Shown in pieces: positions 43,208-64,000 of a DNA stretch of 64,000 bases (within the stretch, counting starts at the first letter, position 1; each line of letters opens with the position of its first letter). Origin of the DNA: Acutalibacteraceae bacterium (GTDB lineage: Bacteria; Bacillota; Clostridia; Oscillospirales; Acutalibacteraceae); the NCBI GenBank assembly GCA_045647985.1, contig JAZRNB010000040.1, positions 3,293-67,292 on the forward strand. Reading direction: 5' to 3'. Position numbers and translations under genes: made by a program. Under the pieces are notes generated by a model. The model was not told where the DNA came from. It searched no databases and saw only the letters and a program-made list of their open reading frames with translations.

Positions 43208-43218
43208 ATAATGATATA

Positions 43219-43265: not shown

Positions 43266-43277
43266 ATCTGTTATAAT
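43249..43277 (+). promoter_or_regulatory. Consensus sigma-A promoter of the rpsF-ssb-rpsR operon
   Basis: TTGACA (43249-43254), a 17-nt spacer, then TATAAT (43272-43277). Confidence 0.7.
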
Positions 43278-43351
43278 ATCGCAGTTGTATAAAGTTACAA
43301 CTATCCTTGCCCCGGAAAAAGGGGCCAATGTCCAAAAGGAGGTGCATCTAA
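43278..43351 (+). promoter_or_regulatory. Structured rpsF 5' leader (possible S6:S18 autoregulatory element)
   Basis: Two hairpins are present, gttgta..tacaac and gcccc-ggaaaaa-ggggc, immediately upstream of the AAGGAGG RBS. An S6:S18-binding rpsF leader has been described in Firmicutes; the match here is not verified. Confidence 0.35.
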
Positions 43352-43630
43352 ATGGCAAAGTATGAAACCGTAGCAGTATTCTCACTTAAGAACGGTGAAG
43401 AAAAGGCTAAGGAGCTTGTTGAAAAGTTCAAGGCTCTTATCGAAGCTAACGGCACAATGGAAGCTGTAGATGAATGGGGTACTCGTAAGCTTGCTTACGC
43501 CATCAACTACGAAACAGACGGCTACTATGTTCTCTACACATATGAAGCTGACGTAGCTTTCCCTGCTGAACTTGACCGTGTTTTCAACATCACAGACGGC
43601 GTTCTCCGTTCTCTTATTGTTGCTAGATAA
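43352..43630 (+). CDS. rpsF: 30S ribosomal protein S6
   Basis: MAKYETVAVF...GTRKLAYAI... 92 aa, in conserved rpsF-ssb-rpsR synteny. Confidence 0.95.
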   Translation: MAKYETVAVFSLKNGEEKAKELVEKFKALIEANGTMEAVDEWGTRKLAYAINYETDGYYVLYTYEADVAFPAELDRVFNITDGVLRSLIVAR

Positions 43631-43642
43631 GGAGATAAATGT

Positions 43643-44068
43643 ATGTTGAATTCAATCATTATTATGGGCAGACTTACTGCAGATCCCGAGCTCCGTTCCA
43701 CAAGCTCAGGCTTATCTGTAACTTCTTTTACAGTTGCAGTTGACCGTGGCTATGTAAGAGCAGGAGAGGAAAGAAAGGCTGATTTCATTCCCGTTGTAGC
43801 ATGGCGTGAAAAGGCAGACTTTGTGTCAAAGTATTTCCGCAAGGGTTCTATGATTGCTGTCCAGGGCTCACTTCAGAGCCGCAGTTATGAGGATAAGAAC
43901 GGAAATAAGCGTGTTGCTTATGAAATAATTGCAGACCAGGTAAGCTTTTGCGGATCAAAGGCTGAATCAGGTACAGGCAATTACGATTCTGTAAGTCCCT
44001 CATCTTATAATAACAGCAGTGCTGATGATTTTTCATCTGTTGTTGAAGATGATGATTTACCCTTCTGA
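43643..44068 (+). CDS. ssb: Single-stranded DNA-binding protein
   Basis: OB-fold start IIMGRLTADPELR and the acidic C-terminal tip DDDLPF. Confidence 0.95.
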   Translation: MLNSIIIMGRLTADPELRSTSSGLSVTSFTVAVDRGYVRAGEERKADFIPVVAWREKADFVSKYFRKGSMIAVQGSLQSRSYEDKNGNKRVAYEIIADQVSFCGSKAESGTGNYDSVSPSSYNNSSADDFSSVVEDDDLPF

Positions 44069-44101
44069 TTCCTTTAAGATTTTTTAAGGAGGATATTAGT
44101 A

Positions 44102-44359
44102 ATGGCTTTTGAAAAGAAAGATAACAAAGGCGGTCGCCCCATGAACAGAAAGAGCCGTAAAAAGGTTTGTACTTTCTGTGTAGAAAAATCTGATTTTATC
44201 GACTACAAAGACAGCCAGAAGCTTCGTCGTTTTATGTCTGAAAGATCAAAGATTTTACCCCGCAGAGTTACAGGTACTTGCGCAGCTCACCAGAGAGAGC
44301 TTACAATAGCTATCAAGCGTGCTCGTCACCTTGCTCTTATTTCCTACATCAGCGACTAA
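44102..44359 (+). CDS. rpsR: 30S ribosomal protein S18
   Basis: CTFCVEK..IDYKD...[24 protein letters not shown]. Confidence 0.95.
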
Positions 44360-44368
44360 TCAAAGCAT

Positions 44369-44398
44369 TCCGCATCATTATGATGCGGATTTTTTTTT
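44369..44398 (+). terminator. Rho-independent terminator after rpsR
   Basis: Stem tccgcatca / tgatgcgga followed by a T9 run. Confidence 0.75.
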
Positions 44399-44448
44399 GC
44401 ATAAAATTTGCCTTTTTACGAAAAATATCCGTGAAAGGGCGTGTTGAT

Positions 44449-44904
44449 ATGAAAAAAGCTTTGCCGGATAAAGAATACTCTGAAAGAGTAAAAAAACTTA
44501 CTCCCTCGTCTCCATTGTTAAAGGACTGCTTGTTTGCTTTCTTGTTTGGTGGGATAATGTGTGTTTTGGGAGAAACTCTTTTTAATTTGTATTATGGTGT
44601 ATTTGCAGATGAAAAGGTTTCAAGAACCGTGGTTTCAATTTCGGTTATTGTGCTTACTGCAATTCTTACGGGTATAGGAGTCTATGATAAAATTGCAAAA
44701 ATCGGCGGAGCAGGGCTTGCTGTTCCCATCAGCGGTTTTGCAAATTCTGTATGTTCACCTGCTATTGAGTACTCAACTGAGGGGCATATTCTCGGTACCT
44801 CTGAAAAAATGTTTTCTCTTGCAGGTGCAGTTATAGTATACGGATGCTCTCTTGCCTCGCTTTACGGAATGATATATTACTTTTTCCTCGGAGGTAATGT
44901 ATGA
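44449..44904 (+). CDS. spoVAC: Stage V sporulation protein AC
   Basis: LKDCLFAFLFGGIMCVLGE...GAGLAVPISGFANS...EYSTEG is collinear with B. subtilis SpoVAC as recalled. ATG 44449 was chosen because the longer ORF overlaps rpsR. Confidence 0.85.
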   Translation: MKKALPDKEYSERVKKLTPSSPLLKDCLFAFLFGGIMCVLGETLFNLYYGVFADEKVSRTVVSISVIVLTAILTGIGVYDKIAKIGGAGLAVPISGFANSVCSPAIEYSTEGHILGTSEKMFSLAGAVIVYGCSLASLYGMIYYFFLGGNV

Positions 44905-45542
44905 AAAGACGCAGAGTATTTGAACTGAAAAACAAGCCTTGTATCATTACTTCGGCTGCCGCTGTAGGTAAGGTAGAGGGTGAAGGCCCCTTAAAGGATG
45001 AATTTGATGTAGTTTTTCCGGATGATGGTATTATGCAGAACTCCTGGGAAAATGCAGAAAGTGAGCTGATGTTTACTGCCGTAAGCAAGAGTCTTGAAAA
45101 ATCAGGGCTCGGGGAAAGTGACATCGGTGTGATTTTTGCAGGCGATCTTATAAATCAGTGTACCTCAAGCACATATGCAATAAGAGGCTTTGATTTTCCC
45201 TTCTGCGGATTGTTCGGTGCCTGTTCGACAATGGCATATTCTCTTGCTTTGGCATCAATTGTAGTTGACGGCGGTTATTCGGATTTGGCGCTTGCTGCAA
45301 CATCTTCGCATTTCTGTTCTGCAGAAAAACAGTTCAGATATCCGCTTGAATACGGAAGCCAGCGTGCTCCTGCATCTCAGCGTACGGTTACGGGTTCAGG
45401 TGCATTTATTGTGGGGAGAAACAGACATTCTGAAATTGTTATACCCCGTGTGATGTTCGGGAAAATCACAGATGCGGGAATCAGTGATACTTCCAATATG
45501 GGAGCCGCAATGGCACCTGTAGATGTTAAAATAGAACCATAA
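44901..45542 (+). pseudogene. spoVAD: spoVAD, 3'-truncated (about 206 conserved codons of an expected ~335-340)
   Basis: Collinear with SpoVAD (thiolase-like) through FAGDLINQ, CGLFGACSTM, LAATSSHFCSAEKQFRYPLEYG and TSNMGAAMAP. Seven unrelated codons and a TAA follow. The C-terminal third and spoVAE are absent from the window. Confidence 0.8.
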
Positions 45543-45748
45543 ATTAAGCGAAAAGCAACACAAAATCTTACACAAATTTCGACACGAAAGGTGGTGAAAA
45601 CGCCCTATTTTACTGGGGTTACGGGCATTTTTGAACTCGAAAATTTGCAGCTGAAGCAATCGTCAAAAATTGCCTGTTCACAATTTGTTTATAATTAGTT
45701 TTTGACACAAAAATCAGCACTATTATTACAATAAAGAAAAATGAAAGG

Positions 45749-46111
45749 ATGAATCAAATGAAAATTACATACCGTGAAGTAAATGGTTACCTTATCCCAA
45801 ATCTTAAACTACCACCTGAAGAGGCAAGTGTTAGGCTTGGGAAATGGGGAATGATGTACAAAACTTATCTTGAAAAGCATAAGTCAGTGGTTTTTAATTT
45901 GTTACTTATTAAAGGTGAGCTGTATCAACATTGTGCAGAAGTTGAGAAGCAGGCAAGGGAGATGTTTGATATACTTGTTGAGCAGATGAAAGTTGCTGAA
46001 GGTGTTACCGAGCAACTGAAAGAAGAAAATCAGATGGAGTGGGTGCAGATAATGGGGAATATTGAAGCGAGGGCTAGGGAGATAGTAAACAATGAAATTA
46101 TATTCAAATAG
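45749..46111 (+). CDS. tnpV: TnpV-family transposon protein
   Basis: MKITYREVNGYLIPNL...LVEQMKVAEGVTEQLKEENQMEWVQIMGNIEARAREIVNNEIIF closely resembles the ~120-aa TnpV proteins of Tn4451-like elements as recalled. The start may be ATG 45758. Confidence 0.7.
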   Translation: MNQMKITYREVNGYLIPNLKLPPEEASVRLGKWGMMYKTYLEKHKSVVFNLLLIKGELYQHCAEVEKQAREMFDILVEQMKVAEGVTEQLKEENQMEWVQIMGNIEARAREIVNNEIIFK

Positions 46112-46304
46112 AAAATTTGGTGTCAGATTTTTGAAATCTATGTAGCAAATCGTTTTTTGCACCAAGAACTAAAAATTAATATATAAATTAAATCGGAAGT
46201 AACAAAAATATATACTATCATTGTTTTTTATCGAAGTCATACATACCTCTTAAAATACCCTTTCTGCATTTTTGCACGTTTTTAATGCATTTTTGTAGTT
46301 ATTA

Positions 46305-46333
46305 TTGATTAATTCGTCAGATAAGAGTATAAT
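46305..46333 (+). promoter_or_regulatory. Sigma-A-type promoter upstream of the PHP-ATPase operon
   Basis: TTGATT (46305-46310), a 17-nt spacer, then TATAAT (46328-46333). Confidence 0.5.
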
Positions 46334-46385
46334 ACGACACAACGCTGTCAAAGCGATGTTGATTTTGGCAGGTAATATGAATTTT

Positions 46386-46431
46386 AACCTCCCTGCTTAT
46401 TTTGTCAGGGAGGTTTTGTGTTTGAATTGTT
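46386..46431 (+). promoter_or_regulatory. Terminator-like stem-loop in the 5' leader of the PHP-ATPase gene
   Basis: Perfect 10-bp stem aacctccctg / cagggaggtt with a 10-nt loop, followed by the T-rich ttgtgtttgaattgtttttt. It lies between the predicted promoter and the GGAGGG RBS. Confidence 0.45.
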
Positions 46432-46448
46432 TTTTGGAGGGATAGTTA

Positions 46449-51314: not shown

Positions 51315-51360
51315 TCCCCGTTGTCACAGTAACCTGCACCAACGGGGATTTTCCTTTTTT
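51315..51360 (+). terminator. Rho-independent terminator of the three-gene operon
   Basis: Stem tccccgtt / aacgggga followed by ttttcctttttt, 146 nt after the stop of the third gene. Confidence 0.65.
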
Positions 51361-51768
51361 ATGCATCCTTAAAACACACTGTGTCCTTCAAACACTCACG
51401 CCTTTTTACATAGGTTTGGTTAACAGCTGGATATTCGGTGTTAGGTAGAGTAGTTTTCGCAAGGTAGTGATAAATCTTAAACGCTACAATAATATAGTTT
51501 TTTAGTGATGTATGAAAGCATATCTTTTTTGCTCATTTTTCCAAAGATGCTATCATTAAAGATTTTTAGTGTACTTTCATCCGGTAATGATTTGATAAAT
51601 GTTTCTAACTGTTCCGTTATAAAACTACAGTCTTTAACCGCACTCAGAGTTATCTTGATTTCTGATGCTTCGTTCATCTGTAATATTATTAATAGTACCT
51701 GTACACGTAATACTGAAAAATACAAAGTATCTGCTTTGTGTAGCAGAGGACAGTTTAGGTGAAATATA

Positions 51769-51807
51769 CGGTGTAGTCAGTTGCGGCTACACCGTGTTTT
51801 CATTTTT
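51769..51807 (+). terminator. Stem-loop plus T-tract abutting the 3' end of the recombinase gene
   Basis: Stem cggtgtag / ctacaccg followed by tgttttcattttt. It would block plus-strand read-through into the antisense strand of the recombinase gene. Confidence 0.45.
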
Positions 51808-53518
51808 ACGAAGCTTTTTTAGCGTAAGCTTTCATTTCTTCTTTTGTCTTTTCTAACATTTCAGCATCAGGAAACTGCATAACACCTACTCCCACAAAGT
51901 GTATTTTTATGGTGACATGTTTCTTTCCGTCTTCACCTCTTACTCGGTCAAAGACTTCAATTTTGTCAATGAGCTTATTAACAATAGAAGGTGTCAGTTC
52001 CTTCAAGTCAGTACACTGACGAATGTTAGAAAGAAAGTTTCTGGCATCAACATTTTCTTGCTGTGCGGTATTGATAAGTTTCTCAGCATCCTCAACCTTT
52101 TGCATTAAATCCATCTGCTCATTTTCATAGTTGGTTAACATTCGGTTGTAACGGTAATCAGGCAGTTTGCCAAGAACATTTTGTTCAAATACCGCCTCAA
52201 TGAGTTTATCCAACTCCTGTATGCGTTTCTTGTTTTTCTCAAGCTCATACTTTGCTTCTTTAAGGTTGTTCGCGATACTAAGTCTGTGTTGCTTTGCGAA
52301 GAGATACAGAAACAGTCGTTCATATTCAGTAATATATTCTGCCGCTTCTCGTATAGTTTTGAGCACCATTTTCTCTAACACTACATTTCTGATATAGTGA
52401 ATAGAACAACTGCCTCTGTTTTCCTTATAAGCGGAGCAACGGAAGAACTCCTGATGTTCTTTAACACTTTTTGCGGCACAGAAATATAGTTTTGAACCAC
52501 AATCTCCACAGTAAACCAATCCCGAAAATATACTTTGCCTGCCCGTCGCTGTATTTCTGCGGCGGTGTTTGTTTATTTCCTGAACTCGTTCCCAAGTATC
52601 CATATCAATAATAGGTTCCTGTGTGTTCGGTATGATAACCCAATCTTCAGCATCGTTATATACCGTTTTATGAACCTTGAAGCTGACAGTTGTTGACTTG
52701 AAATTTACAGTGCAACCTGTGTATTGCATATTCTCAAGGATATGCTTTACACTTGTTTCTTGCCATTCATATGAAGTGGTGAGAGCATTTCTTGTTTTTC
52801 GTCCTATAGAATAGAAATATGCAGTAGGTGTCAGTATTTCCTCGCTTTCAAGTCTTCGGGCAATCTTTCTGATACCTAACCCCTCAATCGCTAACTGATA
52901 AATATATCTGACTACCTTTGCAGCAGGCTCATCAATTACCCATTGTTTAGGGTTCTCTTTATCCTTTTTGTAACCGTAAGGCACCATAGCGGAAACTCTT
53001 TCTCCGTTATCGGATTTTGATTGCCACACCTGACGAATTTTCTTGCTTGTCTGTGAAGCATACCACTCATTAAACAGATTGTGAAATGGCATCATTTCCG
53101 TTCCCTTGCCGCTTATGGTTTCAACGTTCTCCTGAATAGATATAAAGTTCACACCTAAAGACGGATAAAGCACCTGAGTATAGTGGTCAAACAATATATG
53201 CTCACGTCCAAAACGGGATAAATCCTTTACAATAACAGTACCGATTTCACCTGTTTCTATCATACGCTCCATACGCTGAAAGTCAGGTCTGTCAAAAGTT
53301 GTACCTGATATACCGTCATCAACAAAGAACATTGTATTCTTGTAGCCGTGCTTTTTGGCATAGTCTGCAAGAATACGTTTTTGATTAGTAATGCTGTTGG
53401 ATTCTGAATCCTTGTTGTTATCCTTATCCTTATCTTTATCCTTTATATCGTCAACAGATAAACGGCAGTATAATGCGGTTATTTTTTCATTAATATTTTT
53501 CTCGGCTTTCTTTGCCAT
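51806..53518 (-). CDS. Large serine recombinase (TnpX/TndX-like)
   Basis: The N-terminal resolvase domain has the catalytic Ser in ALYCRLSVDD, plus VIVKDLSRFGR. A recombinase domain and a Cys-rich zinc-ribbon region (CGDCGSKLY...FRCSAY) follow, then a C-terminal coiled coil. ATG 53518 follows a GGAG RBS. Confidence 0.85.
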   Translation of the reverse strand: MAKKAEKNINEKITALYCRLSVDDIKDKDKDKDNNKDSESNSITNQKRILADYAKKHGYKNTMFFVDDGISGTTFDRPDFQRMERMIETGEIGTVIVKDLSRFGREHILFDHYTQVLYPSLGVNFISIQENVETISGKGTEMMPFHNLFNEWYASQTSKKIRQVWQSKSDNGERVSAMVPYGYKKDKENPKQWVIDEPAAKVVRYIYQLAIEGLGIRKIARRLESEEILTPTAYFYSIGRKTRNALTTSYEWQETSVKHILENMQYTGCTVNFKSTTVSFKVHKTVYNDAEDWVIIPNTQEPIIDMDTWERVQEINKHRRRNTATGRQSIFSGLVYCGDCGSKLYFCAAKSVKEHQEFFRCSAYKENRGSCSIHYIRNVVLEKMVLKTIREAAEYITEYERLFLYLFAKQHRLSIANNLKEAKYELEKNKKRIQELDKLIEAVFEQNVLGKLPDYRYNRMLTNYENEQMDLMQKVEDAEKLINTAQQENVDARNFLSNIRQCTDLKELTPSIVNKLIDKIEVFDRVRGEDGKKHVTIKIHFVGVGVMQFPDAEMLEKTKEEMKAYAKKAS

Positions 53519-53604
53519 AATTAAAACTCCTTTCCGGAAGCCGAGCATTGCATTAGGTGTTTCCATTTTACAATGCCCGACTGCCGTTTTTCAAATGTGT
53601 GATT

Positions 53605-53886
53605 TTATGACAGCTGTTCTGACAGTATAATTTCTTTAAACTGCTGTAACAACGATTTATTTAACTTACCGTCAAAGACACCTGTTACATCATAAACAAT
53701 ACCGTGTATCTGTTCTGAAACTTTGATTTCATCGGGAACAGTCTGCATTTCTTCCGTTCTCTTTATTTCGTCAGGCTTTGGAATTGCATACTCCATTAAA
53801 TCAACCGGGATATCAGCATTTATTCTGCCTGAACCTTTTCTTGAAACAAGCTTAGGAGCTATTGAAAGTTTCTTCATCCGCATCAC
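53605..53886 (-). CDS. Small hypothetical protein in the mob-parB-recombinase operon
   Basis: 93-aa ORF whose ATG overlaps the ParB-like stop by 4 nt (translational coupling). No motif was recognised. Confidence 0.4.
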   Translation of the reverse strand: MMRMKKLSIAPKLVSRKGSGRINADIPVDLMEYAIPKPDEIKRTEEMQTVPDEIKVSEQIHGIVYDVTGVFDGKLNKSLLQQFKEIILSEQLS

Positions 53887-54818
53887 CTCGCATCCCTGTT
53901 TCTCTGTCGCTGAAGATATTTGTGGTAATATTCCAGAGCTTTTAAGATATGCTCCTCTTTCTGCTGTTTGCTATAGTTTTTACCGAAGAATTTGTTAATA
54001 CGTTCTTCAGGGATTTTAATAGCTTCTGCCTGATTAGGCTTTGGTGCAGTCAGAATTGCTAACACTGTATCTGCACTAAGCTGATTCTGTTCAGAGAGTT
54101 TACGCATTTTCTGTGCCTGTGCAAGTGAGGGAGTGACCTCATCACTCTCATAGGTTTCAAAAATCATCATCTGCTCTTCGGGAGTAAGATATGAGATTTC
54201 AACCGCAGGTCGCATTGCAATTCTGCCTTCATCAACAAGGTTAAGAAGCGACATTTCAAGGTTAGTCAGACGGATATACCTCTTGATTTGAGTTGCACTG
54301 TCTTCGCTATCCTTGGAAATTTTTTCTGCAGAGCTCAACTTTGGACCCACCGGGTCCGAAGTTAAATCCGTGCGTTTACCTTGCTTTTTAATAGCATCCA
54401 TTTTCATCTTATAGGCAAAGGCTTTTTCCGAGGGCAGAATATGCTCACGGTGCAGATTACTGTCAACGAGAATAATATCTGCTTCCTCTTTGCTTATGTC
54501 CAATACAACAACGGGAACCTCTGCTATTTTCAGCCTTGTTGCCGCAAGGTATCTTCTGTGACCTGATATGATTTCATATATATCAGCCTTATCATCCTTA
54601 CGCACCATAAGGGGTTGGATAATACCATTATCACGGATACTATCTTCCAACGGCTTCATATCTTCCTCACGGCACTTATACGGATTCTTAAAATTAGGAA
54701 CAATACTGCTCATAGGCATCTTTATGATTTCTGTTGTCTGAGGCTTTACCGCCTCTGTTTCTTTGGATTCTTCTGTTTTCTCAAACAGGGTGTTAATAAA
54801 ATTATCTTCTTTATTCAT
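53883..54818 (-). CDS. ParB/Spo0J-like N-terminal domain protein
   Basis: IIQPLMVRKDD...YEIISGHRRYLAATRL is a ParB-box (GxRR). 311 aa. It starts 4 nt after the relaxase stop. Confidence 0.75.
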   Translation of the reverse strand: MNKEDNFINTLFEKTEESKETEAVKPQTTEIIKMPMSSIVPNFKNPYKCREEDMKPLEDSIRDNGIIQPLMVRKDDKADIYEIISGHRRYLAATRLKIAEVPVVVLDISKEEADIILVDSNLHREHILPSEKAFAYKMKMDAIKKQGKRTDLTSDPVGPKLSSAEKISKDSEDSATQIKRYIRLTNLEMSLLNLVDEGRIAMRPAVEISYLTPEEQMMIFETYESDEVTPSLAQAQKMRKLSEQNQLSADTVLAILTAPKPNQAEAIKIPEERINKFFGKNYSKQQKEEHILKALEYYHKYLQRQRNRDAR

Positions 54819-54822
54819 TTAA

Positions 54823-56022
54823 TTACCTCTCTTTTCTGATATCAATTTTTTTATTGGTTTTCTCTTTTCGGACAGTTTTTAGCACATCCGAGATAAATGC
54901 TTTAACTTTTTCAGGCATTGCTTTTAGTGCTTCAAGGTACGGTGCACAGATCTGTTCAAGCTCACTAAGCCTTTTACTCAGTCTGTTTATATGGCTCTGC
55001 AATTCCCAATTCCTTTTTCGAAGTCTTTCATTTTCTCCCTCAAGGTCAAAAATCTTACTCCTTGCCGCAACGGACTGCTTTGCCATATTGCTCAGATCAT
55101 TGAAATCTTCACTTGAAATTGTCACTTTACCCGTTAGGGTTTTCTTACCCATACCGTCAATCTCGTTGAATGTCTTATGCACGGTCTTAATTTCATCGTA
55201 TCTGACTTTTTCCGTCTGCAATCGTTCCTTGATTTCTTCAAGCCTCTTTTTATCCTGCTGAATCTCATATTGCAGACAAGACAGATGCTCAGCCGTACTG
55301 CCTTTCTCACCACGAATGAAATCATTAAAACCGGCTTTTTGCATGTGATTGAAGAAATCATCCTGCAAAATACTGTAGGACGGAATCAGCACAGGTTTAC
55401 CTTTTTCATTGAATATGACATTACCGTTTTCATCCACAGCCTGAGGTGACTTCCATTTCTTTGAATGGCTTATCTGATTGACAGTTTCTTTTACAGTACC
55501 TACAAGTGATTTATCTTTGCATCGCTTTGTCCACAGAATTTGCTTTTCCACAACAGGCAGAGCTACAAGGTGCATATGATAGTGATATACCGGTTTCCCG
55601 TACTGTTCTGTGAGCGCCACATTCAGTTCATCAGCGTGCATAACGGCAGATAAAATATTCTGTTCACCGTAGAGATTAACTGCGAAACGATAGGCTTCTG
55701 CATAAAACTCTTTTGCATATTCATAACCGCCGTGAGTTTCAAAGTAGTCTGTGTTTACATCGAATATGACTTCATCAAAGACCTTCGCATCAGCTTTAAG
55801 ACCACGCATACAGACTCTCTTTTCGGCTATTAGTTTGTTCAGTTGTTCGTTGTAGGTCAGTTCTTCGCAACTCTTGAAATGCACATTCATATCAGAGTGA
55901 GCCATATCAACATTCATGTTTGCGTAAGACTCATTCTTTCTCTCATTGTGCCTTTCACACTTACCGATTGTGCTTTGTGTATGAGTGACAACTCTTGCTA
56001 CACTGTAGTTTTTCTTAGACAT
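54823..56022 (-). CDS. MobV-family (Mob/Pre) relaxase
   Basis: MSKKNYSVARV...GKCERHNERKN (the HxxR motif) and VMHADE...YHYHMHLVALP (the HxDE...HxH motif), with a coiled-coil C-terminus. ATG 56022 follows GGAAGGAG. The longer ORF starting at 56148 is probably not used. Confidence 0.8.
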   Translation of the reverse strand: MSKKNYSVARVVTHTQSTIGKCERHNERKNESYANMNVDMAHSDMNVHFKSCEELTYNEQLNKLIAEKRVCMRGLKADAKVFDEVIFDVNTDYFETHGGYEYAKEFYAEAYRFAVNLYGEQNILSAVMHADELNVALTEQYGKPVYHYHMHLVALPVVEKQILWTKRCKDKSLVGTVKETVNQISHSKKWKSPQAVDENGNVIFNEKGKPVLIPSYSILQDDFFNHMQKAGFNDFIRGEKGSTAEHLSCLQYEIQQDKKRLEEIKERLQTEKVRYDEIKTVHKTFNEIDGMGKKTLTGKVTISSEDFNDLSNMAKQSVAARSKIFDLEGENERLRKRNWELQSHINRLSKRLSELEQICAPYLEALKAMPEKVKAFISDVLKTVRKEKTNKKIDIRKER

Positions 56023-56149
56023 AGGTTTATCTCCTTCCTGCATTACTGCTTTATTTGTTCCGCTGACTTTCTTCGAAAGTGCGTAACCCACTATGACACT
56101 TTCACGGATTTCCCGTGCAAAGATGTCAGTGGGCTCTGCGAGGCTCATA

Positions 56150-56206
56150 AACTAAAATTTATCGCTTATCAAGGGAGCGACAAACTTTAGTTGCGGTATA
56201 TACCGC
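56150..56206. promoter_or_regulatory. Compound inverted repeats upstream of the relaxase gene (oriT or operator candidate)
   Basis: A nested hairpin aactaaa-tcgct...agcga-tttagtt (56150-56192) is followed directly by the perfect 14-bp palindrome gcggtatataccgc (56193-56206). The structure lies 128-184 nt upstream of the mob start. Confidence 0.35.
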
Positions 56207-56357
56207 AGACGAGCTTCGCTATGTAAGGGTGGCTGTAGTATCCTTTATGCCGTGTTACGTTTGAGGGGACAGTTATTATATAAAGAAATTGCACCTAAAA
56301 GTAATGGGAACAAGCCACATAAAATTGTTCCTGATTTTCAGAAATACTTTTTAGAAA

Positions 56358-56556
56358 ACAAAAAAGCCGTCACACAGACAGCACAAATAGCGAGAAGACA
56401 TTTCATCCTCTCGCATAGTTTATACTGAAACTATGTAACGGCTTAAATTTTAAGCACTGATTGTCCGTATGTTACTGACCGAGTATCGGACTATACTTTC
56501 TTCAGTCAGATAATATGTGTGGCATAAAGCCAATAAGTAAAAAATATGTGTTTCAG
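56358..56556. repeat. Direct repeat copy 1 (~199 bp)
   Basis: By hand alignment it is about 87% identical to 63098-63295. It contains several hairpins and, on the minus strand, a stem followed by a T6 run. Confidence 0.85.
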
Positions 56557-57075
56557 TTTGTATTAAGTTGTAAGGCAAATACATTATTTACCAATTTACC
56601 ATTATAAAGAACATTTGTTCTTTTGTCAATGATTTTCTACAAATTTCTTGCCGTTTCACCTGAAATAGTTCCTACCCCGGAATCTCACTACAGCGTTGCC
56701 TTGCTCGTATCATCGCAAAGTCGTATCACTTTCAGACGGTCATTAAATTTTCAAGGTGCATAAAAGCAAAAAAGTCCTCACCTCCGATGAACAGAGGAAA
56801 GGACTTTTACCGTCGGTATCACGCAAGACAAACAAAAAAAAACACCGCTGAAATAAGTACAGATTGCCTCTGTTCTTATCTTCATACGGTGCTTGGGTAG
56901 TCAATAATATTGCTCCGCTTACGCGCTACAAAGTTATTTGTATTAAATTGTGTTTTAAGTATACAGAACTGATACATGCTTGTCAATAGTTTTTTGCAAA
57001 TTAAAGTTCGTGTTGGTGGAAAAAGTTATGAAGTAACAAGTGAATGTAAACGGATTGAATTTTATGGTGTTGGTG

Positions 57076-57084: not shown

Positions 57085-57114
57085 GTGCTTATTAGAATTA
57101 TGGGGGGTGAAAAT

Positions 57115-57555
57115 ATGCATAAAGTATTTGGCGTTAAAGAAAAAGCTGAATATGCAGATAGAGAAGGTGCATATTTAATCCCTATTCATAACAATAAAAT
57201 GGGTGTAATAAAAACTGACAAAGGTTACTTTCTGCTTGGTGGCGGTTTAGATAAAAATGAAAGCCACGAGGATTGCATAAAAAGAGAATGTATTGAAGAA
57301 ACCGGCCATGCTGCTGCAATAAAAGAAAAAATATGTTCTGCTGAAGCCTATACCACACATCCTAAATTAGGGCATTTTCATCCTGTTCAGAGTTATTATG
57401 TTGGTGAACTCAAACAAAGGGTTTCTGCGCCGATAGAAGCAGACCATATTTTAATGTGGTTCAAATATGAAGAAATAAAAGGCAAAATGTTTGCTGAAAT
57501 GCAGAATTGGGCATTGGAGCAAGTATGGAATGAGGTTATGAAATGGAATTTATAA
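57115..57555 (+). CDS. NUDIX hydrolase
   Basis: Nudix box GGGLDKNESHEDCIKRECIEETG (GX5EX7REUXEEXGU). ATG 57115 follows a GGGGGTG RBS. Confidence 0.8.
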   Translation: MHKVFGVKEKAEYADREGAYLIPIHNNKMGVIKTDKGYFLLGGGLDKNESHEDCIKRECIEETGHAAAIKEKICSAEAYTTHPKLGHFHPVQSYYVGELKQRVSAPIEADHILMWFKYEEIKGKMFAEMQNWALEQVWNEVMKWNL

Positions 57556-57911
57556 ATCGTAAAAACATAAAAGAACTTTCAAATCCTGGTGTTATTTCAA
57601 AGCAACTTATAAACCCCGAAAACTCAAAAAGCGAAAGAGTTACAATAACGGAAGTTCATCTTGAAGTCGGTGCAATTCAGCCAAGACACAAACACGATTC
57701 TTCAGAACAAATTTGGTATGCTATTCAAGGAACAGGCAAATTACTTCTTGCCGACGAAAAAGAAATGATTTTCACCGCAGGTGATGTTGTCAGATTTGCT
57801 GCTAATGATATTCATGGTTTATTGAATGATGGTGAAACTGATTTTGTGTATATTTCTGTTACTTCGCCACCGATAGATTTTGGATATGCCTACAAAGATA
57901 AAAGCAACTAA
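57543..57911 (+). CDS. Cupin-domain protein
   Basis: 122 aa. The pattern QPRHKHDSSEQIWY...GDVVRF..NDIHG is a cupin_2 His/Glu pattern. It overlaps the NUDIX gene by 13 nt. Confidence 0.65.
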   Translation: MEFINRKNIKELSNPGVISKQLINPENSKSERVTITEVHLEVGAIQPRHKHDSSEQIWYAIQGTGKLLLADEKEMIFTAGDVVRFAANDIHGLLNDGETDFVYISVTSPPIDFGYAYKDKSN

Positions 57912-58030
57912 TACTGATACAAATACAATTGTTGATTTGACGAGGTTTTAATTATGGCTGAATCAGAAAAAGTAATTTTAACCAATAAGTATGGTATAAT
58001 TCGATTGAATAAATTGTTGAGGTGACATTT

Positions 58031-58549
58031 ATGGAAATAAAAGAGTATGAAGAAAAATATGCAAAAGAAATGTCAGAAATTATTTTAAGTAATTTATATA
58101 CTATAACTATAAAAGATCATGGACAAGAAGTAGTTGATAGAATATCCAGACATTTTACAGAAGAAGAGATAAAGAAGAATTTTCCTAAACGAATCAAGTG
58201 TTTTGTTGCTATTGAGGGGGATAAAGTGTTAGCGACAGCAAGTATAGATAATGTAAATGGTATGTACGGTATTCAGGCAGAAAATCCAGAAAACAAATAT
58301 ATAATACTTACTGTATTTACACATCTTGAATATCAAAAGCGAGGTATTGGCAAAGCTCTTATACAAAAAATTGATGAATATGCTGAGGAAATTGGTGCAG
58401 ACGAAGTGATTATACCTGCATCAGTTTATGGTCTTGAATTTTATAGAAAGCTTGGATATGACTTTTATAATGGAAATTCTACACAAAATGAAGATGGAGA
58501 GTATATATTATCCAAACATTTTAATAAAAAAACAAAAAAGAATTTATAA
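58031..58549 (+). CDS. GNAT N-acetyltransferase
   Basis: YQKRGIGKALIQKIDEYA is motif A. ATG 58031 is preferred over GTG 58022. Confidence 0.7.
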   Translation: MEIKEYEEKYAKEMSEIILSNLYTITIKDHGQEVVDRISRHFTEEEIKKNFPKRIKCFVAIEGDKVLATASIDNVNGMYGIQAENPENKYIILTVFTHLEYQKRGIGKALIQKIDEYAEEIGADEVIIPASVYGLEFYRKLGYDFYNGNSTQNEDGEYILSKHFNKKTKKNL

Positions 58550-58608
58550 AAAATCATCAAAAAATAAAGAAATTTAATTATGGAATAATAAATTCGACAA
58601 AAAAGAAC

Positions 58609-59190
58609 ATGGAGAGGAATAGCAGAATTATGAAACATTGCGGAACACAAATGTTAGAAACAAGCAGATTGATTTTAAGAAGATATGTGAACGAAGATGC
58701 TGCCGCGATGTATAAGAATTGGGCATCCGATTCAGAGGTCACTAAATATTTAATGTGGCAGACACACTCCAGTGAGACGGTCAGCCAAAGCATTATAAAT
58801 GAATGGTTAAAAGAATATTCTAACGATAATTATTATCATTGGGCTATCGTATTAAAAGAAAACGGTAATGAACCTATTGGTGATATTGCCGTTGTACATA
58901 TGAACGAAGAAGTTTCAATGATGCATATCGGTTATTGTATAGGTAGAGATTGGTGGCATCAAGGGATTACATCAGAAGCACTTAAAGCAATTATGGATTT
59001 TTTATTTGATGTAGTAGATGCAAATCGTATTGAATCAAGACACGACCCGAGAAATCCAAACTCCGGCGGAGTAATGAAAAAATGCGGCATGAAGTACGAA
59101 GGAACTTTACGTAGCTCTGATTGGAATAATCAGGGAATCTGTGATGCTTGTTATTATGCTTTGTTAAAATCAGAGCGCTATGGTGACTAA
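58609..59190 (+). CDS. GNAT N-acetyltransferase (RimJ/RimL-like)
   Basis: LETSRLILRRY start, WHQGITSEALKAIMDFLF, and the ending NSGGVMKKCGMKYEGTLR. The true start may lie at an internal Met (58630 or 58651). Confidence 0.7.
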   Translation: MERNSRIMKHCGTQMLETSRLILRRYVNEDAAAMYKNWASDSEVTKYLMWQTHSSETVSQSIINEWLKEYSNDNYYHWAIVLKENGNEPIGDIAVVHMNEEVSMMHIGYCIGRDWWHQGITSEALKAIMDFLFDVVDANRIESRHDPRNPNSGGVMKKCGMKYEGTLRSSDWNNQGICDACYYALLKSERYGD

Positions 59191-59192
59191 TA

Positions 59193-59705
59193 ATGAAAGT
59201 AGAATTAAAACAGTTAAATGTTAATATGGCTGAACAAGAATATGACATGCTACAAGGTATTCTTGATATAGAAAATGGCTTTACAAATCCTGCATATAAC
59301 TTGTCCTACAAGAAATACCAAAAATGGTTGCAAGAAATGGATAATCATTCACGTGGTATTGATTTACCAAAGGGTTGGATTCCTTATACTACATATTTTT
59401 TGTATATTGATGATATCCCGGTAGGCTATGGCAGAGTAAGACATTCGTCATCTGAATATTTGGAAACTGTCGTTGGTGCAGGAAATCTTGGATATGGTAT
59501 TTCAAAAGAATACCGTGGTAAAGGTTTTGGAAATATCCTGTTTAAAGAATTATTGAAAAAATGCAAAGAACATGGCTATAATGAAATCAAGTTATTTCCG
59601 TTGAAAACAAACGAAGCTACTGTAAAGATAATGCTTAAAAACGGTGGAAAGATAATCGGTGATTTCAAAGGCGAAAAACATATTGTATTAATTCCGTTAC
59701 ATTAA
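59193..59705 (+). CDS. GNAT N-acetyltransferase
   Basis: EYRGKGFGNILFKELLKKCKEHG is motif A. It starts 2 nt after the preceding stop. Confidence 0.65.
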   Translation: MKVELKQLNVNMAEQEYDMLQGILDIENGFTNPAYNLSYKKYQKWLQEMDNHSRGIDLPKGWIPYTTYFLYIDDIPVGYGRVRHSSSEYLETVVGAGNLGYGISKEYRGKGFGNILFKELLKKCKEHGYNEIKLFPLKTNEATVKIMLKNGGKIIGDFKGEKHIVLIPLH

Positions 59706-59733
59706 TTGACATTCTAATTTAGGGGGGATACTA

Positions 59734-60216
59734 ATGTTAAGATTAAGACCTTACAATAAAAATGATGCAGACACAATACTTTCTTGGAGTAAAGAGAAAA
59801 TATCCTTTTACAAATGGTCTGCAGGAGTTATGGGCAAGTATCCCTTAAGCAAAAAGCGATTCAGCTTCGTTGAAAATCTTATGGCTTTTACTGCTATTGA
59901 AGATGATGAGGTCGTAGGATTTTTTACTATGAGAAGACCGTCAGAAAGCTTTGACGAACTGAGATTCGGCTTTGTAGTTGTTGACCCCACAAAGCGTGGT
60001 AAAGGCTACGGCAAAGCAATGCTTCAGTTAGGTTTGAAATTTGCAAAAGAAATCTATGGTGCAAAAAAAGTTTCTTTAGGTGTATTTGAAAATAATGAAT
60101 CTGCTTATTACTGTTACAAAGCAGTTGGTTTTCAAGATGTTGTTTTGGAAAAGAAAGAAACCTATACTGTACTTGGCGAAGAATGGAAATGTTTAGAATT
60201 GGAAATGCAACCATAA
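59734..60216 (+). CDS. GNAT N-acetyltransferase
   Basis: PTKRGKGYGKAMLQLGLKFA is motif A. LRLRPYNKNDADTI is a typical start. Confidence 0.7.
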   Translation: MLRLRPYNKNDADTILSWSKEKISFYKWSAGVMGKYPLSKKRFSFVENLMAFTAIEDDEVVGFFTMRRPSESFDELRFGFVVVDPTKRGKGYGKAMLQLGLKFAKEIYGAKKVSLGVFENNESAYYCYKAVGFQDVVLEKKETYTVLGEEWKCLELEMQP

Positions 60217-60251
60217 ACTATCATGTATTTATTTTCTTAAGGTGATTTTCA

Positions 60252-60824
60252 ATGGATAATTATAATTTGATTAATATAATTAAAAACAAATATCTCAGTA
60301 ACAATAAAGAAGATGTTTTGAAGCATGTTGAAACTGTGGCAGAATTAGCTATCGGTTTAGCTGAAGTATATAGCCTTGATGTTACAAAAACAAATCTTGC
60401 AGCATTACTTCACGATATAAGTGGAACAATGACACCCCAGGAAATGTATGATTTTGCAATAACGAAAGGATTAGAAATAGACCCTGCCGAAGAAAAATAC
60501 CATGCTCTTTTACATCAAAGAGTTTCAAAAATCATAGCACAGGAAGAATACTGTATTACCGATTCAGATGTTCTGAATGCAATTGAATGCCATACAACTC
60601 TAAGAAAAAATGCAAGTATATATGATAAGGTTATATTCATAGCAGATAAAATATCTTGGGACCAAAAAGGTGTACCATCATATGATGATTTACTAAAAGG
60701 TGGTTCTGTTGAATCATTAAATGAAGCCTGCTACCTTTATATAAAATATCAATTTGATAACAATATGTTAGTTATGCCTCACCAATGGTTAATTGAGGCT
60801 TACGAGGAATTGCAAAAAGCATAG
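60252..60824 (+). CDS. HD-domain phosphohydrolase (YqeK-like)
   Basis: LLHDISG is the HD motif, followed by HALLH and ECHTT. 190 aa. Confidence 0.6.
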   Translation: MDNYNLINIIKNKYLSNNKEDVLKHVETVAELAIGLAEVYSLDVTKTNLAALLHDISGTMTPQEMYDFAITKGLEIDPAEEKYHALLHQRVSKIIAQEEYCITDSDVLNAIECHTTLRKNASIYDKVIFIADKISWDQKGVPSYDDLLKGGSVESLNEACYLYIKYQFDNNMLVMPHQWLIEAYEELQKA

Positions 60825-60832
60825 GTGATTTT

Positions 60833-61633
60833 ATGGTTTATGACGTTAGAACACCAGAGGCAGCAACACAAACGCTTGCTGACATTACGGGTATACCCTA
60901 TAACTTTTGGGTTTATGAGAGTTATTTGACTGATGGAAATGTTGATGCAGATTATTTGTATGATATTATAGAGAAATACAATGGTCATTTACCTCCATTT
61001 GAAGATTTATATCTGATTATCAGTCATATAACAACTAGTGCAAACGGTTGCATTGAAATCGCAGAGAACGGAATCGGTGATTTGCAATCTGCATACAGAA
61101 ATCCAAATTCAGAATTAAGGCAGTTTTTAGATATAAATGGTATCGATATACGGATTAATAATTCTTGTTTAGTACACAATGGAACGTATTACAGTATTGA
61201 ATACGATAGATATGATTGTCCTTTGGATGATGAAAGCATAGAACATAAAGGTTGGTGTGTGGGTAGGAAATTTTATAGTGACAACAGTCTCTGTGGTTTC
61301 TTTGCTATTGATGCAGAAAGGCCTTATGGTGGATATGTTCACGAACGACCTGAGATACTTTATAATATTGATGAGCTGTTAAACACAAACTTAGCAGATG
61401 CTTGGAAAAATAGTCATACTGCATATGAAGTTATTATTAAGATACATAGTAGTGAAGTGGAATTATATGGACACGACAATGATGAAGATGAGACAAAGAT
61501 AATTAGACTATTATTGGATGCATTTTATGAAATGTGTTCAGGTTCATCAGAAGTTCTTGCTCAATGCAAACCTGATGTTAAAATAACCCCCGACAGAATA
61601 GTTTCTATTTTGCCTTTTGATAAATGGCAATAA
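60833..61633 (+). CDS. Hypothetical protein
   Basis: 266-aa ORF with an AGGTGA RBS, tightly packed in the operon. No motif was recognised. Confidence 0.45.
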   Translation: MVYDVRTPEAATQTLADITGIPYNFWVYESYLTDGNVDADYLYDIIEKYNGHLPPFEDLYLIISHITTSANGCIEIAENGIGDLQSAYRNPNSELRQFLDINGIDIRINNSCLVHNGTYYSIEYDRYDCPLDDESIEHKGWCVGRKFYSDNSLCGFFAIDAERPYGGYVHERPEILYNIDELLNTNLADAWKNSHTAYEVIIKIHSSEVELYGHDNDEDETKIIRLLLDAFYEMCSGSSEVLAQCKPDVKITPDRIVSILPFDKWQ

Positions 61634-61655
61634 TTTAAGAAAAGGAGTTGAAAGT

Positions 61656-62420
61656 ATGGATACCACAAAAAAATTCAATGGTATAGCAAACGAATATACT
61701 CAGAGCAGACCAAGTTATGCGGCAGAATTTATTGAGTGCTTATTAAGCAAATACGAATTTTCTGCTTCATCTGTTGTTGCCGACATAGGTTCAGGCACAG
61801 GTAAGTTTGCAAAACAGCTTCTTGATAAAGGTAGCAATGTTATTTGTGTTGAGCCGAACACTGATATGCGACTTGTGGCTGAAAAAGAATTATGTGAATA
61901 TCCTAACTTTAAATCTGTTGCCGGTAGTGCGGAAAACACAATGCTCCCTGATAGTTCTGTTGATTTCATAACTACTGCACAAGCATTTCATTGGTTTGAT
62001 ACAAAAAGTTTTAAAGAAGAATGTTCCCGAATAATCAAGCCTAACGGAAAAGCATTTCTAATTTGGAATACCAGAGATACTGAAGCATTGATTAATCAGA
62101 AATTACATAGTGTTTATTCCAAGTATTGTCCTAACTTTAATGGTTTTAGCGGTGGCACAAAGCCACATGATGACCGAATTAAATATTTCTTTGATAATAA
62201 TTATGAATATATAACTTTTGACAATCCGTTATATTTTGACAGAGAAAAATTTATAAACCGTAGTCTTTCAGGCTCATATTCTTTGAAAAAAGGCGACAGC
62301 AATTTTGACTTGTACATAGAAGAAATAGAAAATATTTTTGATGAGTTTGAAACCGACGGTATTGTGAAAATCGAAAATCAGACAGTCGCTTATATCGGTA
62401 CAGTAAAAAAAGAGGTTTAA
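61656..62420 (+). CDS. Class I SAM-dependent methyltransferase
   Basis: VADIGSGTGKFAKQLLDKGSNVICVEPNTDM is motif I plus the acidic loop. ATG 61656 follows an AAGGAG RBS. Confidence 0.75.
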   Translation: MDTTKKFNGIANEYTQSRPSYAAEFIECLLSKYEFSASSVVADIGSGTGKFAKQLLDKGSNVICVEPNTDMRLVAEKELCEYPNFKSVAGSAENTMLPDSSVDFITTAQAFHWFDTKSFKEECSRIIKPNGKAFLIWNTRDTEALINQKLHSVYSKYCPNFNGFSGGTKPHDDRIKYFFDNNYEYITFDNPLYFDREKFINRSLSGSYSLKKGDSNFDLYIEEIENIFDEFETDGIVKIENQTVAYIGTVKKEV

Positions 62421-62421
62421 T

Positions 62422-63009
62422 ATGAACAGACAGTATGCTGAAAAATTAATTGCAGAAGCAAAAGAGTTAAACGGCGGTGCGTGGATTGACCATTCATATA
62501 ATGTCGCTCGTTTAGCTGAAAAGATTGCAAGTAAAGCAAATATGGATACTGAAAAGGCTTACATCATTGGACTTCTCCACGATATAGGAAGAAGAAACGG
62601 CACAATGCAAGCTCGTCATGCTTTGGAAGGCTATAATTATTTAACAAGCATCGGTTTTGATGATGGTGCAAGAATTTGCATGACACATACTTTTCAATAT
62701 AAAGATGTTGATGCTATTTATGATAGTTGGGATTGCTCTGCAGATGAAAAGCAGTTTATAAAAAATTATCTTGATAGTGTTACATACGATGACTATGATA
62801 AGCTAATTCAGTTGTGTGATGCTTTATCATTAGCAAACGGCTACTGCTATGCCGAAAAGAAAATGGTAAACAGTATTTTGAAATTTGATTTTAAAGATAC
62901 CACCGCAAATAAATGGAAAGCTATATTAGAGTTAAAAGATTATTTTGATGCTTTGATTTGCGGAGATGTTTATTCTTTGTTTTGCGAGTTAAAACAAGCT
63001 AAGTGGTGA
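62422..63009 (+). CDS. HD-domain protein
   Basis: HSYNVARLAEKIA...LLHDIGRR is an H...HD pattern. It starts 1 nt after the preceding stop. Confidence 0.6.
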   Translation: MNRQYAEKLIAEAKELNGGAWIDHSYNVARLAEKIASKANMDTEKAYIIGLLHDIGRRNGTMQARHALEGYNYLTSIGFDDGARICMTHTFQYKDVDAIYDSWDCSADEKQFIKNYLDSVTYDDYDKLIQLCDALSLANGYCYAEKKMVNSILKFDFKDTTANKWKAILELKDYFDALICGDVYSLFCELKQAKW

Positions 63010-63030
63010 AACATAAAAACAATAGTTATT

Positions 63031-63057
63031 GCCCTCACATTTGTGGGGGCAATTTTA
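63031..63057 (+). terminator. Stem-loop after the cargo operon
   Basis: Stem gccctcaca / tgtgggggc (one G-T pair) followed by aatttta. The T tail is weak. Confidence 0.45.
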
Positions 63058-63097
63058 ATATATCAAAGCCTGCCTTTAAAGCAACGGAAGAAGCACT

Positions 63098-63295
63098 ACA
63101 AAAAACCGTCACATAGACAGAACAAACTGCGGAAAGACATTTCATCCTCTTGCTTTGTTTGCACTGAAACTATGTAACGGCTTAAACTTTAAGCTTTGCT
63201 TGTCCGTATGTTACTAACCGAGTATCGGACTATACTTTCTCTGGTCAGATAATATGTGTAGCATAAAGCTAAAAAGTAAAATACATGTGGTTCAG
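63098..63295. repeat. Direct repeat copy 2 (~198 bp)
   Basis: Same orientation as 56358-56556 and about 87% identical. It ends 7 nt before the stop codon of the minus-strand SIR2-like gene. Confidence 0.85.
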
Positions 63296-63302
63296 CTTAT
63301 TG

Positions 63303-64000
63303 CTATATATTTTCTTCAATGAAATAAAGTATCGAATCTGTTTGAGCATAATCTTCAATATAGATGGGTTCAACATTCAAATTATCTCTAAAATATCTTT
63401 CCATAACATTTCCCATAGGTTTCATAATTGAATAATGCTTAGGAGCTTTATTACCTTTAGTTTCATGTATGCTTTGTAGAAAAGCAAGAATATTTACATC
63501 TGAAAAACCAAACCCTACAAAAACACATGTTTTTTCAGATAAAAGGCGTTCTACTGCTTTCCTATATTTTTCACTGCGATATAAAAGTTTTGAATATTCT
63601 GTATCCCCAAAAACAATAGAACTGGCATTATCATAGGTGCCGTGAAGTTTGACTATTGGTGTTTCTTCATTATCTAAAACCTGAACTATGCAATCATAAC
63701 CTTCATCAATAAGGTTTTTAGGTAATATAACTTTAGAATTACTCCTGTATTTTTCTAAAAAATTATCATAATTAGTAGTTAGTATAATTCTGAAAGGAAG
63801 TTTTGAAAGGATTTCTTGCCTTGCAGAACGGCGTCCCTTAGTAGATAAATATTTCCTTATGTATTGGCTAAACCATTGCTCACCTAATCGGTAACGTAGA
63901 TAATCTGCGACTATTAAGAACTTCCCATCTGACAACAATTTTTGCAATTCTTCTCTCTCACATTCAGGTAATACCACTCGATTGTCTAGCTCATCTAATC
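63303..64000 (-). CDS. SIR2-like (SIR2_2 / DHS-like NAD-binding) domain protein, partial (5' end outside the window)
   Basis: RIILTTNYDNFLE and VFVGFGFSDVNI match the SIR2_2 family pattern. The expected N-terminal GAGxS block is missing and the reading frame stays open to the window edge. Confidence 0.6.
   Translation of the reverse strand, partial: LDELDNRVVLPECEREELQKLLSDGKFLIVADYLRYRLGEQWFSQYIRKYLSTKGRRSARQEILSKLPFRIILTTNYDNFLEKYRSNSKVILPKNLIDEGYDCIVQVLDNEETPIVKLHGTYDNASSIVFGDTEYSKLLYRSEKYRKAVERLLSEKTCVFVGFGFSDVNILAFLQSIHETKGNKAPKHYSIMKPMGNVMERYFRDNLNVEPIYIEDYAQTDSILYFIEENI

Follow-up and report, generated by a model that had tools for sequence, protein, structure and literature searches.

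Site-specific insertion of a mobile element into the forespore gene spoVAD in Clostridia of animal guts

The sporulation gene spoVAD is needed to load developing spores with dipicolinic acid (DPA). In a 64,000-nucleotide stretch of DNA from an Acutalibacteraceae bacterium (GenBank assembly GCA_045647985.1, contig JAZRNB010000040.1, positions 3,293 to 67,292; hereafter the window), this gene is cut by one end of a mobile element. The open reading frame (ORF) at 44901-45542 on the forward strand overlaps the spoVAC stop (44904) with its start, and encodes 213 amino acids, namely the first 206 codons of SpoVAD followed by seven foreign codons and a stop. It covers positions 3-206 of 329 of the Pfam profile SpoVAD (PF07451, E = 6e-79) and positions 2-205 of 327 of the NCBIfam profile spore_V_AD (TIGR02845). 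Because the product is truncated and does not reach the full-length match of about 330 residues, its score of 248-266 bits lies below the NCBIfam cut-offs of 402-412 bits. Judged by its profile matches, the ORF is a true SpoVAD fragment and an incomplete gene. Full-length SpoVAD relatives of about 335 amino acids aligned to the window by tblastn up to base 45518 only, and the C-terminal 130 residues had no tblastn match elsewhere in the 64 kb. After ...NMGAAMAP the frame continues with VDVKIEP and ends with TAA at 45540-45542. A preliminary description of this locus had proposed that the ORF is collinear with SpoVAD as far as ...MGAAMAP, runs through seven foreign codons and stops at 45542, that the last ~130 codons lie outside the window, and that tnpV is the next gene; Pfam and tblastn agree with each of these points. 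The B. subtilis-type sequence used for that comparison, MGSAMAPAAADTIKQH, is present in a solved SpoVAD structure (3LMA).

Upstream of spoVAC lies a candidate forespore-type promoter, GCATA-N17-AAAAATA, assigned by its likeness to the B. subtilis consensus. It stands just behind the rpsR terminator (44369-44389), and the promoter candidate is conserved in three relatives (L001, L075 and L076; loci of relatives are cited by such numbers). In a further relative (L002) the spoVA operon is fused to gpr. In C. difficile, spoVAC-D-E belongs to the sigma-G regulon (PMC3789822). The earlier statement that spoVA is a forespore operon is therefore backed by the published regulon, the conserved promoter candidate and the gpr fusion.

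An uninterrupted form of the locus was found in L075. Positions 38886-45519 of the window form a single block of 81% nucleotide identity with it, and this block ends exactly at the junction; L076 is a second contig with an uninterrupted spoVAD and the same flanks. The comparison with insertion-free relatives that had been called for thus yielded an intact gene and a similarity that stops at the junction. The extent of the host 5' part of spoVAD is given by the Pfam range, the tblastn end point and the end of collinearity with L075. Downstream of the intact gene in L075 follow a 55-amino-acid ORF, a helix-turn-helix gene, His_Phos_1, DUF896, TatD and methionyl-tRNA synthetase genes, and the same downstream genes flank 3' halves of spoVAD in L008 and L009.

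Many of the relatives (53-84% identity) retrieved with the truncated protein as query are likewise about 212-216 amino acids long, and all of these end in VDVKIEP; others reach about 335. The cut at MGAAMAP was seen in 52 of the 120 nearest SpoVAD clusters, against 66 of full length. The tail VDVKIEP is found in 45 of the 52 cut clusters, and the others carry VNVKIEP, VSVKLKP, DDVKIRPYP... and related tails. With the missing C-terminal 130 residues as query, the counterpart emerged: many products of about 135 amino acids that start with (M/L)TFTP and continue with AAA... In one relative, GCA_054271835.1, both halves of spoVAD lie on one contig and on the same strand, 33 kb apart, with mobile-element genes between them. 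The 3' remainder, which had been predicted at the far end of the element, is therefore present there in a relative, outside the genome of the window. Reconstruction of the uninterrupted gene in silico, by joining the halves at the dinucleotide CC, gave an intact SpoVAD in all eight genomes with both junctions (335-345 amino acids; ORFs of 336-356 codons counted from the preceding stop), and one rebuilt protein is 94.6% identical, gapless, to intact relatives. According to the preliminary description, SpoVAD of relatives ending at the same point would speak against an insertion. Such cut relatives do exist, but their seven-residue tail is element DNA, and they end at MGAAMAP because the same element inserted there. 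With an empty site in a relative, the same junction at 50 of 51 left ends, the 3' half at the far end and the ORF restorable in 8 of 8 genomes, the proposal that a mobile element cuts spoVAD was borne out; the junction is a site-specific insertion and not an assembly break.

The gene spoVAE had been expected directly after spoVAD. This holds in other hosts, with spoVAE downstream of the 3' half in L010, L077 and others, but not in the lineage of the window, where L075 has the 55-amino-acid ORF after its intact spoVAD. A small ORF of 51-68 amino acids with a hydrophobic C terminus always follows spoVAD (L075 7013-7180; L008 1225-1392; L010 10411-10581). It has no Pfam match, and in the lineage of the window it occupies the expected place of spoVAE.

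The left junction reads ...AAT ATG GGN GCN GCN ATG GCN CC/T GTA GAT GTT AAA ATA GAA CCA TAA..., with the slash marking the border, and the right junction, known from relatives, reads ...AAATTTATGGTTTTCTC TTG ACA TTT ACC CC/N GCN GCN... A canonical right junction corresponds to AATTTATGGTTTTCTCTTGACATTTACCCC fused to GCNGCN... Where the host has a CCC proline codon, CC is followed by C in the right junction but by T in the left one, so that the exchange is placed at CC, positions 45516-45517 of the window; in these hosts attL and attR have just CC in common, and no longer target duplication is present. Accordingly, attB is ...ATGGCNCC/NGCNGC... and attP is ...GACATTTACCCC/TGTAGATGTT... In the reconstructed attP, 22 of 29 positions are dyad-symmetric about the central CC. 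The ~110 bp at each end of the element form an imperfect inverted repeat, with inverted motifs such as ATTTTACTGGG / CCCAGTAAAAT in the left and right ends, and the similarity of the window to all left-end loci extends at least to 45578-45631. On the host side, 51 distinct left arms gave the consensus AAtATGGGnGCnGCnATGGCaCC, conserved at codon positions 1 and 2. Residues N199-P206 are the longest invariant run in the SpoVAD alignment, which makes it plausible that an element with many kinds of host should target them.

The strictness of the target was assessed with one degenerate pattern covering both element ends, which was run on a species-representative genome collection and matched 63 places. 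Fusion to ...NMGAAMAP was found for 50 of the 51 left ends, and fusion to PAAA or SAAA for all 12 right ends. The sole exception (L016 ~540-600, JAFTVI010000035.1) has the left end joined to ...TGTCCGCCTGTGTTCC/CTGTAGATG, just past the stop of an unrelated gene, and represents an off-target or secondary attachment site. The hosts are metagenome-assembled genomes (MAGs) labelled Acutalibacteraceae, Oscillospiraceae, Eubacteriales or Clostridia, and the sources, where titled, are goat, sheep, roe deer and water deer guts. The viral contig collection IMG/VR holds 0 copies of either end; the element is no prophage family known to that database. MAG contigs often break ~100-800 nt from these junctions. 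In the MAG JAZSJT (SGB_384; L053, L058 and L073), the host contig stops 66 nt inside the element, and two other contigs overlap it by 141 nt and continue into different variants that are 86% identical over ~660 nt and unrelated thereafter. Two element variants compete for one site within the JAZSJT population.

The left arm, consisting of the terminal repeat and tnpV, is common to most copies as far as about 46086-46110, and the cargo beyond differs. In relatives, the right arm comprises a 298-amino-acid protein, a relaxase of varying type, DUF6870, a 564-amino-acid large serine recombinase, a variable cargo of toxin or abortive-infection type, and the right end. The recombinase has the domains Resolvase, Recombinase, Zn_ribbon_recom and DUF4368, and 359 members fall into its 90% cluster. 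Relaxases and a coupling protein were found in L006, L007 and L010. Taken together, the junction in the window is probably the attL (left end) of a Tn4451 / Tn6104-6106-type integrative mobilisable element.

The identity of the element is decoupled from that of its hosts. The 564-amino-acid recombinase is 97-98% identical across hosts whose SpoVAD proteins are 55-70% identical; between the window and L002 the host part is 58% and the element 83% identical; and positions 45519-49359 of the window, as far as the fetched block reaches, are 89% identical to L011 from a very different host. The element has thus moved horizontally, in independent and recent insertions. An ancient insertion inherited vertically was ruled out, since element divergence does not track host divergence.

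A sister recombinase, P0323, is 72% identical and named from Oscillibacter valericigenes; its exact sequence occurs on 825 contigs and in 1265 index blocks. Its gene lies 157 nt from the SpoVAD 3' fragment in five host backgrounds and is again preceded by DUF6870, and the element carries type IV secretion genes (L077-L081). The P0323-type right end, ...TTG ACT TCT TCC CC/N GCN GCN, differs in sequence and has its crossover at the same CC. The other tails among the 52 cut clusters point to further related lineages, as judged from their residues. The DUF6870 gene encodes 82-83 amino acids and stands immediately upstream of the recombinase in both families (L006 5193-5441; L010 4082-4330; L077 9645-9896), and its product is a candidate recombinase partner or directionality factor. 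About 65 nt inside the right end, an outward-facing TTGCAA-N18-CATAAT was observed (L006 9907-9936; same place in L008, L009 and L010). As a predicted promoter, it could read into the spoVAD 3' half and the downstream genes or, in the circle, across attP to tnpV. A comparable promoter arrangement has been described for the Tn4451 joint.

In the window itself, the element extends from 45518 to at least 64000 (Table 1). No terminator-like hairpin was found between the stop of the truncated spoVAD and tnpV. A little past tnpV the GC content drops from the host level of ~40% to 27-33%, and the three AT-rich genes from 46449 to 51169 are a probable defence system. They are followed by what is probably a 5.6-kb mobilisable unit of Tn4451 size nested in the spoVAD element; in the plasmid collection it had partial matches of 66-68% to the recombinase, Mob and ParB genes only. 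The recombinase of this unit was ruled out as the inserting enzyme, being 32% identical to the spoVAD-associated one. The genes at 57085-63977 encode NUDIX, cupin, four GNAT, HD, a 266-amino-acid protein, a methyltransferase with a weak match to MADS mad2, and a second HD protein, all in one orientation, and a SIR2/ThsA-like gene lies on the opposite strand at the window edge. Neither DUF6870, the 298-amino-acid protein, the right-end motif nor the host right-flank genes were found in the 64-kb window. The right end must be located past the window's edge or on a different contig, and the matching recombinase is presumably located beyond 64000.

Table 1. Coordinates of the host and element features in the window
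Feature	Position	Strand	Evidence or remark
Candidate forespore-type (sigma-G/F-like) promoter of the spoVA operon	44399..44427	+	GCATA-N17-AAAAATA
spoVAC	44449..44904	+	Pfam SpoVAC_SpoVAEB, E = 3e-35, full profile
spoVAD host 5' part, codons 1-206, B arm of attL	44901..45517	+	Ends in crossover dinucleotide CC 45516-45517
Element-encoded tail VDVKIEP + TAA, core-proximal P' arm	45518..45542	+	Same tail in 45/52 truncated relatives
Conserved left terminal region, ~110 bp	45518..45631	+	Near-identical in window, L001, L002, L007
tnpV, first element gene	45749..46111	+	Pfam TnpV, E = 3e-41; co-oriented with spoVAD
TrlF-like PHP + AAA ATPase	46449-48818	+	Pfam, PADLOC, NCBIfam
S24 (LexA-like) peptidase	48796-49458	+	Overlaps TrlF-like gene by 23 nt
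DUF4062 / PDC-S60-like protein	49538-51169	+	Pfam, PADLOC, NCBIfam
Candidate nested mobilisable unit	51359..56968	-	20-nt inverted repeats 51359-51378 / 56949-56968; limits tentative
Second large serine recombinase	51806-53566	-	Pfam; same domain architecture
ParB-like	53883-54818	-	Pfam
MobV/Mob_Pre relaxase	54823-56148	-	Pfam, NCBIfam MobV
Low-GC cargo (31-35%) to window end	57085..64000		Pfam, PADLOC

The consequence of the insertion for sporulation was considered next to the anatomy of the element. A large serine recombinase would have inserted the element at the codons ...N-M-G-A-A-M-A-P/A-A..., with strand exchange at the CC, so that the left end supplies seven codons and a stop and the right end, to judge from relatives, abuts ...PAAA. 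In the integrated state the allele would be a spoVAD null, because the 3' half has an in-frame TTG only and no ribosome-binding site. The cost would be borne only at sporulation, with none in growth. Spores of clostridial spoVA mutants (C. perfringens and C. difficile) remain viable though poor in DPA, and on this precedent the null allele would be tolerated. Restoration of spoVAD would come about only by ordinary excision linked to mobility of the element and not by a developmental programme. A tolerated null allele that the recombinase can reverse is the likeliest and most economical reading, and we consider it somewhat favoured overall. The recombinase genes of the two families are preceded by extended -10 sigma-A-like sequences (TTGAAA-17-TGcTACAAT and TTGCAT-17-TGcTATACT), so by consensus the recombinase promoter appears to be of the housekeeping type. 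A regex scan upstream of DUF6870 and the recombinase in three elements found no sigma F, G, E or K consensus, which is weak evidence.

In the P0097 lineage, just the left end and tnpV remnants are kept, with housekeeping genes behind them, and neither a right end nor the spoVAD 3' half was found within 10 kb. This arrangement recurs in 10 contigs that come from several samples, and is thus no chimera but a remnant or rearrangement that has become fixed, which suggests that a permanent break of spoVAD can persist. Seen in detail in L002, L003 and L004 (10620-11720), the left end and tnpV are followed by a second, truncated tnpV and then by ANTAR, glutamine synthetase and glutamate synthase genes.

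Several observations weigh against a tolerated null allele or limit the ground on which it stands. What the window lacks (right end, matching recombinase and spoVAD 3' half) is known from relatives, on which the assumption of an intact element in this genome is based. The promoters were called from consensus matches alone. Interruption affects nearly half of the nearest SpoVAD clusters (52/120), which is high for a costly knock-out, and these obligate anaerobes are thought to rely on spores. Both halves of spoVAD are intact in every paired genome (8/8), and, whether the element is there or not, the 5' half has a ratio of nonsynonymous to synonymous substitution rates (dN/dS) of 0.06-0.10 in all pairs, although dS is saturated and the ratio does not discriminate. 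Intact halves and a low dN/dS fit a recent insertion and a maintained function equally. The exact attP junction gave 0 matches among JGI metagenome contigs, a collection that holds just one copy of either end and is therefore uninformative on this point.

The most far-reaching alternative is that a programmed excision in the forespore restores spoVAD, with the circle held in the non-dividing spore and re-integrated after germination. The trigger may be sigma-G transcription of spoVA that reads into tnpV and the left-arm genes and biases the recombinase towards excision. The target is a gene of the forespore line by the C. difficile regulon (PMC3789822), by its sigma-G/F-like promoter and by its linkage to gpr in L002; and tnpV is the first gene and co-oriented, with no terminator in between, so forespore transcription should enter the element. 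Moreover, removal at CC is precise and in frame, prevalence is high with both halves always intact, and in a spore that does not divide an excised circle would stay undiluted and could re-integrate. According to work cited in PMC3158075, TnpV was once proposed to be Xis-like, but reference 17 of the same article is given for TnpX of Tn4451 needing no helper. The structural model of TnpV is all-helical, of low confidence (predicted local distance difference test, pLDDT, 68; predicted template modelling score, pTM, 0.35) and not obviously Xis-like, and DUF6809 replaces TnpV at the left end of some elements. A weak TTGACA-N19-TACAAT lies just upstream of tnpV, and the sequences in front of DUF6870 and the recombinase are sigma-A-like with no sporulation-sigma consensus. 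Finally, the very recent horizontal spread argues against a domesticated developmental role, and one lineage retains a remnant only. Programmed excision is therefore regarded as unlikely.

A neutral insertion, with the loss made good by a second intact spoVAD or spoVA operon elsewhere, appears quite unlikely: mobile spoVA operons occur in Bacillus (spoVA2mob, as cited in PMC6907783) and L002 has an extra SpoVAC/SpoVAEB-family gene nearby, yet no second SpoVAD-like sequence was found in the 64-kb window or the fetched flanks of relatives, to which this search applies. Another way of retaining function would be a split protein, assembled from the 213-residue N-terminal fragment and a 135-residue C-terminal fragment initiated at TTG (MTFTP...). 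SpoVAD has a two-lobed, thiolase-like fold. The cut falls near the middle of the protein (structures 3LMA and 3LM6), and the in-frame TTG at the right end is kept in two element families. On the other hand, the conservation of the TTG is explained by its place in the recombinase binding arm, no Shine-Dalgarno sequence was found within 15 nt upstream of it, 18-33 kb or more of element separates the C-terminal fragment from the spoVA promoter, and the cut destroys the most conserved motif of the protein, so that a working split SpoVAD is highly improbable. There is also a slim chance that the junction in this particular genome is a dead remnant, with the right part and the 3' half deleted, or a chimeric contig. 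None of the three missing parts (right end, matching recombinase, 3' half) occurs in the 18.5 kb of element that the window covers, a remnant of this sort exists in the L002 lineage, and MAG contigs tend to break close to these junctions. However, the junction is base for base the canonical attL of 50 independent assemblies, the first 3.8 kb of the element are 89% shared with L011 in another host, and with elements of 33 kb in relatives, 18.5 kb without a right end is unremarkable.

The element was compared with known systems. Tn4451/Tn4453 and the C. difficile elements Tn6104, Tn6105 and Tn6106 combine a TnpV homologue, cargo, a Mob gene and a large serine recombinase (PMC3158075). The spoVAD element resembles Tn4451 and Tn6106 in having TnpV at one end, then cargo, a relaxase, and a recombinase with a DUF4368 tail towards the other end, as well as a 2-bp crossover without a longer target duplication; nested serine-recombinase units are known from Tn6103 too. 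TnpX elements use loosely defined GA targets, whereas the spoVAD family uses one codon position of one gene (50/51). In contrast to Tn4451 and Tn6106, DUF6870 always precedes the recombinase in the spoVAD family, its cargo is of defence type in place of catP, and the family is known from sequence alone.

Intervening elements in sporulation genes include skin (sigK), SPbeta (spsM), vfbin (spoVFB), vrin (spoVR) and gin (gerE) (PMC4191935, PMC5595907). As in skin and SPbeta, an element with a large serine recombinase lies in a sporulation ORF, and precise excision would rebuild this ORF in frame. All characterised targets are mother-cell genes, as the preliminary description had stated in agreement with both articles, and their elements are excised in the terminal mother cell only; spoVAD is a gene of the forespore line, with spoVAC-D-E under sigma G in C. 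difficile and predicted to be so here. Whereas skin and SPbeta elements are largely immobile and vertically inherited, the spoVAD element is spreading horizontally, as seen from the recombinase identity of 97-98% across divergent hosts and from the two variants in one MAG. Unlike those elements, it has no sporulation-type promoter that we could find at the recombinase.

Streptococcal and clostridial conjugative elements with serine recombinases integrate inside conserved genes. They share with the spoVAD family a lineage-specific attB in a conserved ORF, disruption of the gene and modules for conjugation or mobilisation, the P0323-type element having type IV secretion. By comparison, spoVAD is a developmental gene that is silent in growth, and the cost is deferred to sporulation. 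Active lysogeny, as in the Listeria comK prophage, is a model of reversible excision that restores a host gene while the element is kept. Such reversibility is what excision in the forespore would need; no sign of a developmental programme or of regulated, reversible excision emerged here, and the spoVAD element is not a phage. In the literature searched, spoVAD is nowhere connected with a recombinase, an att site or an integrated element; a survey of mobile elements in the gut places SpoVAD genes on 'genomic islands', with no insertion noted (PMC6907783). The machinery is of the known Tn4451/Tn6106-like sort with a new and very strict target; unusual are the choice of a forespore gene and the scale of occupancy.

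Direct experiments are within reach, given how well the att sites (~50 bp, with crossover at CC) and the recombinase are defined, and the recombinase could become an integration tool for Oscillospirales. A clade of mobilisable and conjugative elements with serine recombinases attaches at a single codon position within a forespore gene and occupies at least 51 distinct host alleles among species-representative Clostridia genomes from animal guts. Should the interrupted spoVAD be a simple null allele, such insertions could be a frequent reason, so far overlooked, why gut commensals make spores that are poor in DPA and less resistant to heat, or fail to sporulate; this would bear on transmission, on culturing with ethanol or heat selection, and on the 'former spore-former' phenotype. 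Restoration of spoVAD in the forespore, if it occurs, would be a new kind of developmental rearrangement, the first case of an endospore former rearranging its DNA by programme in that cell line, and the element would borrow its timing from the gene that it interrupts.

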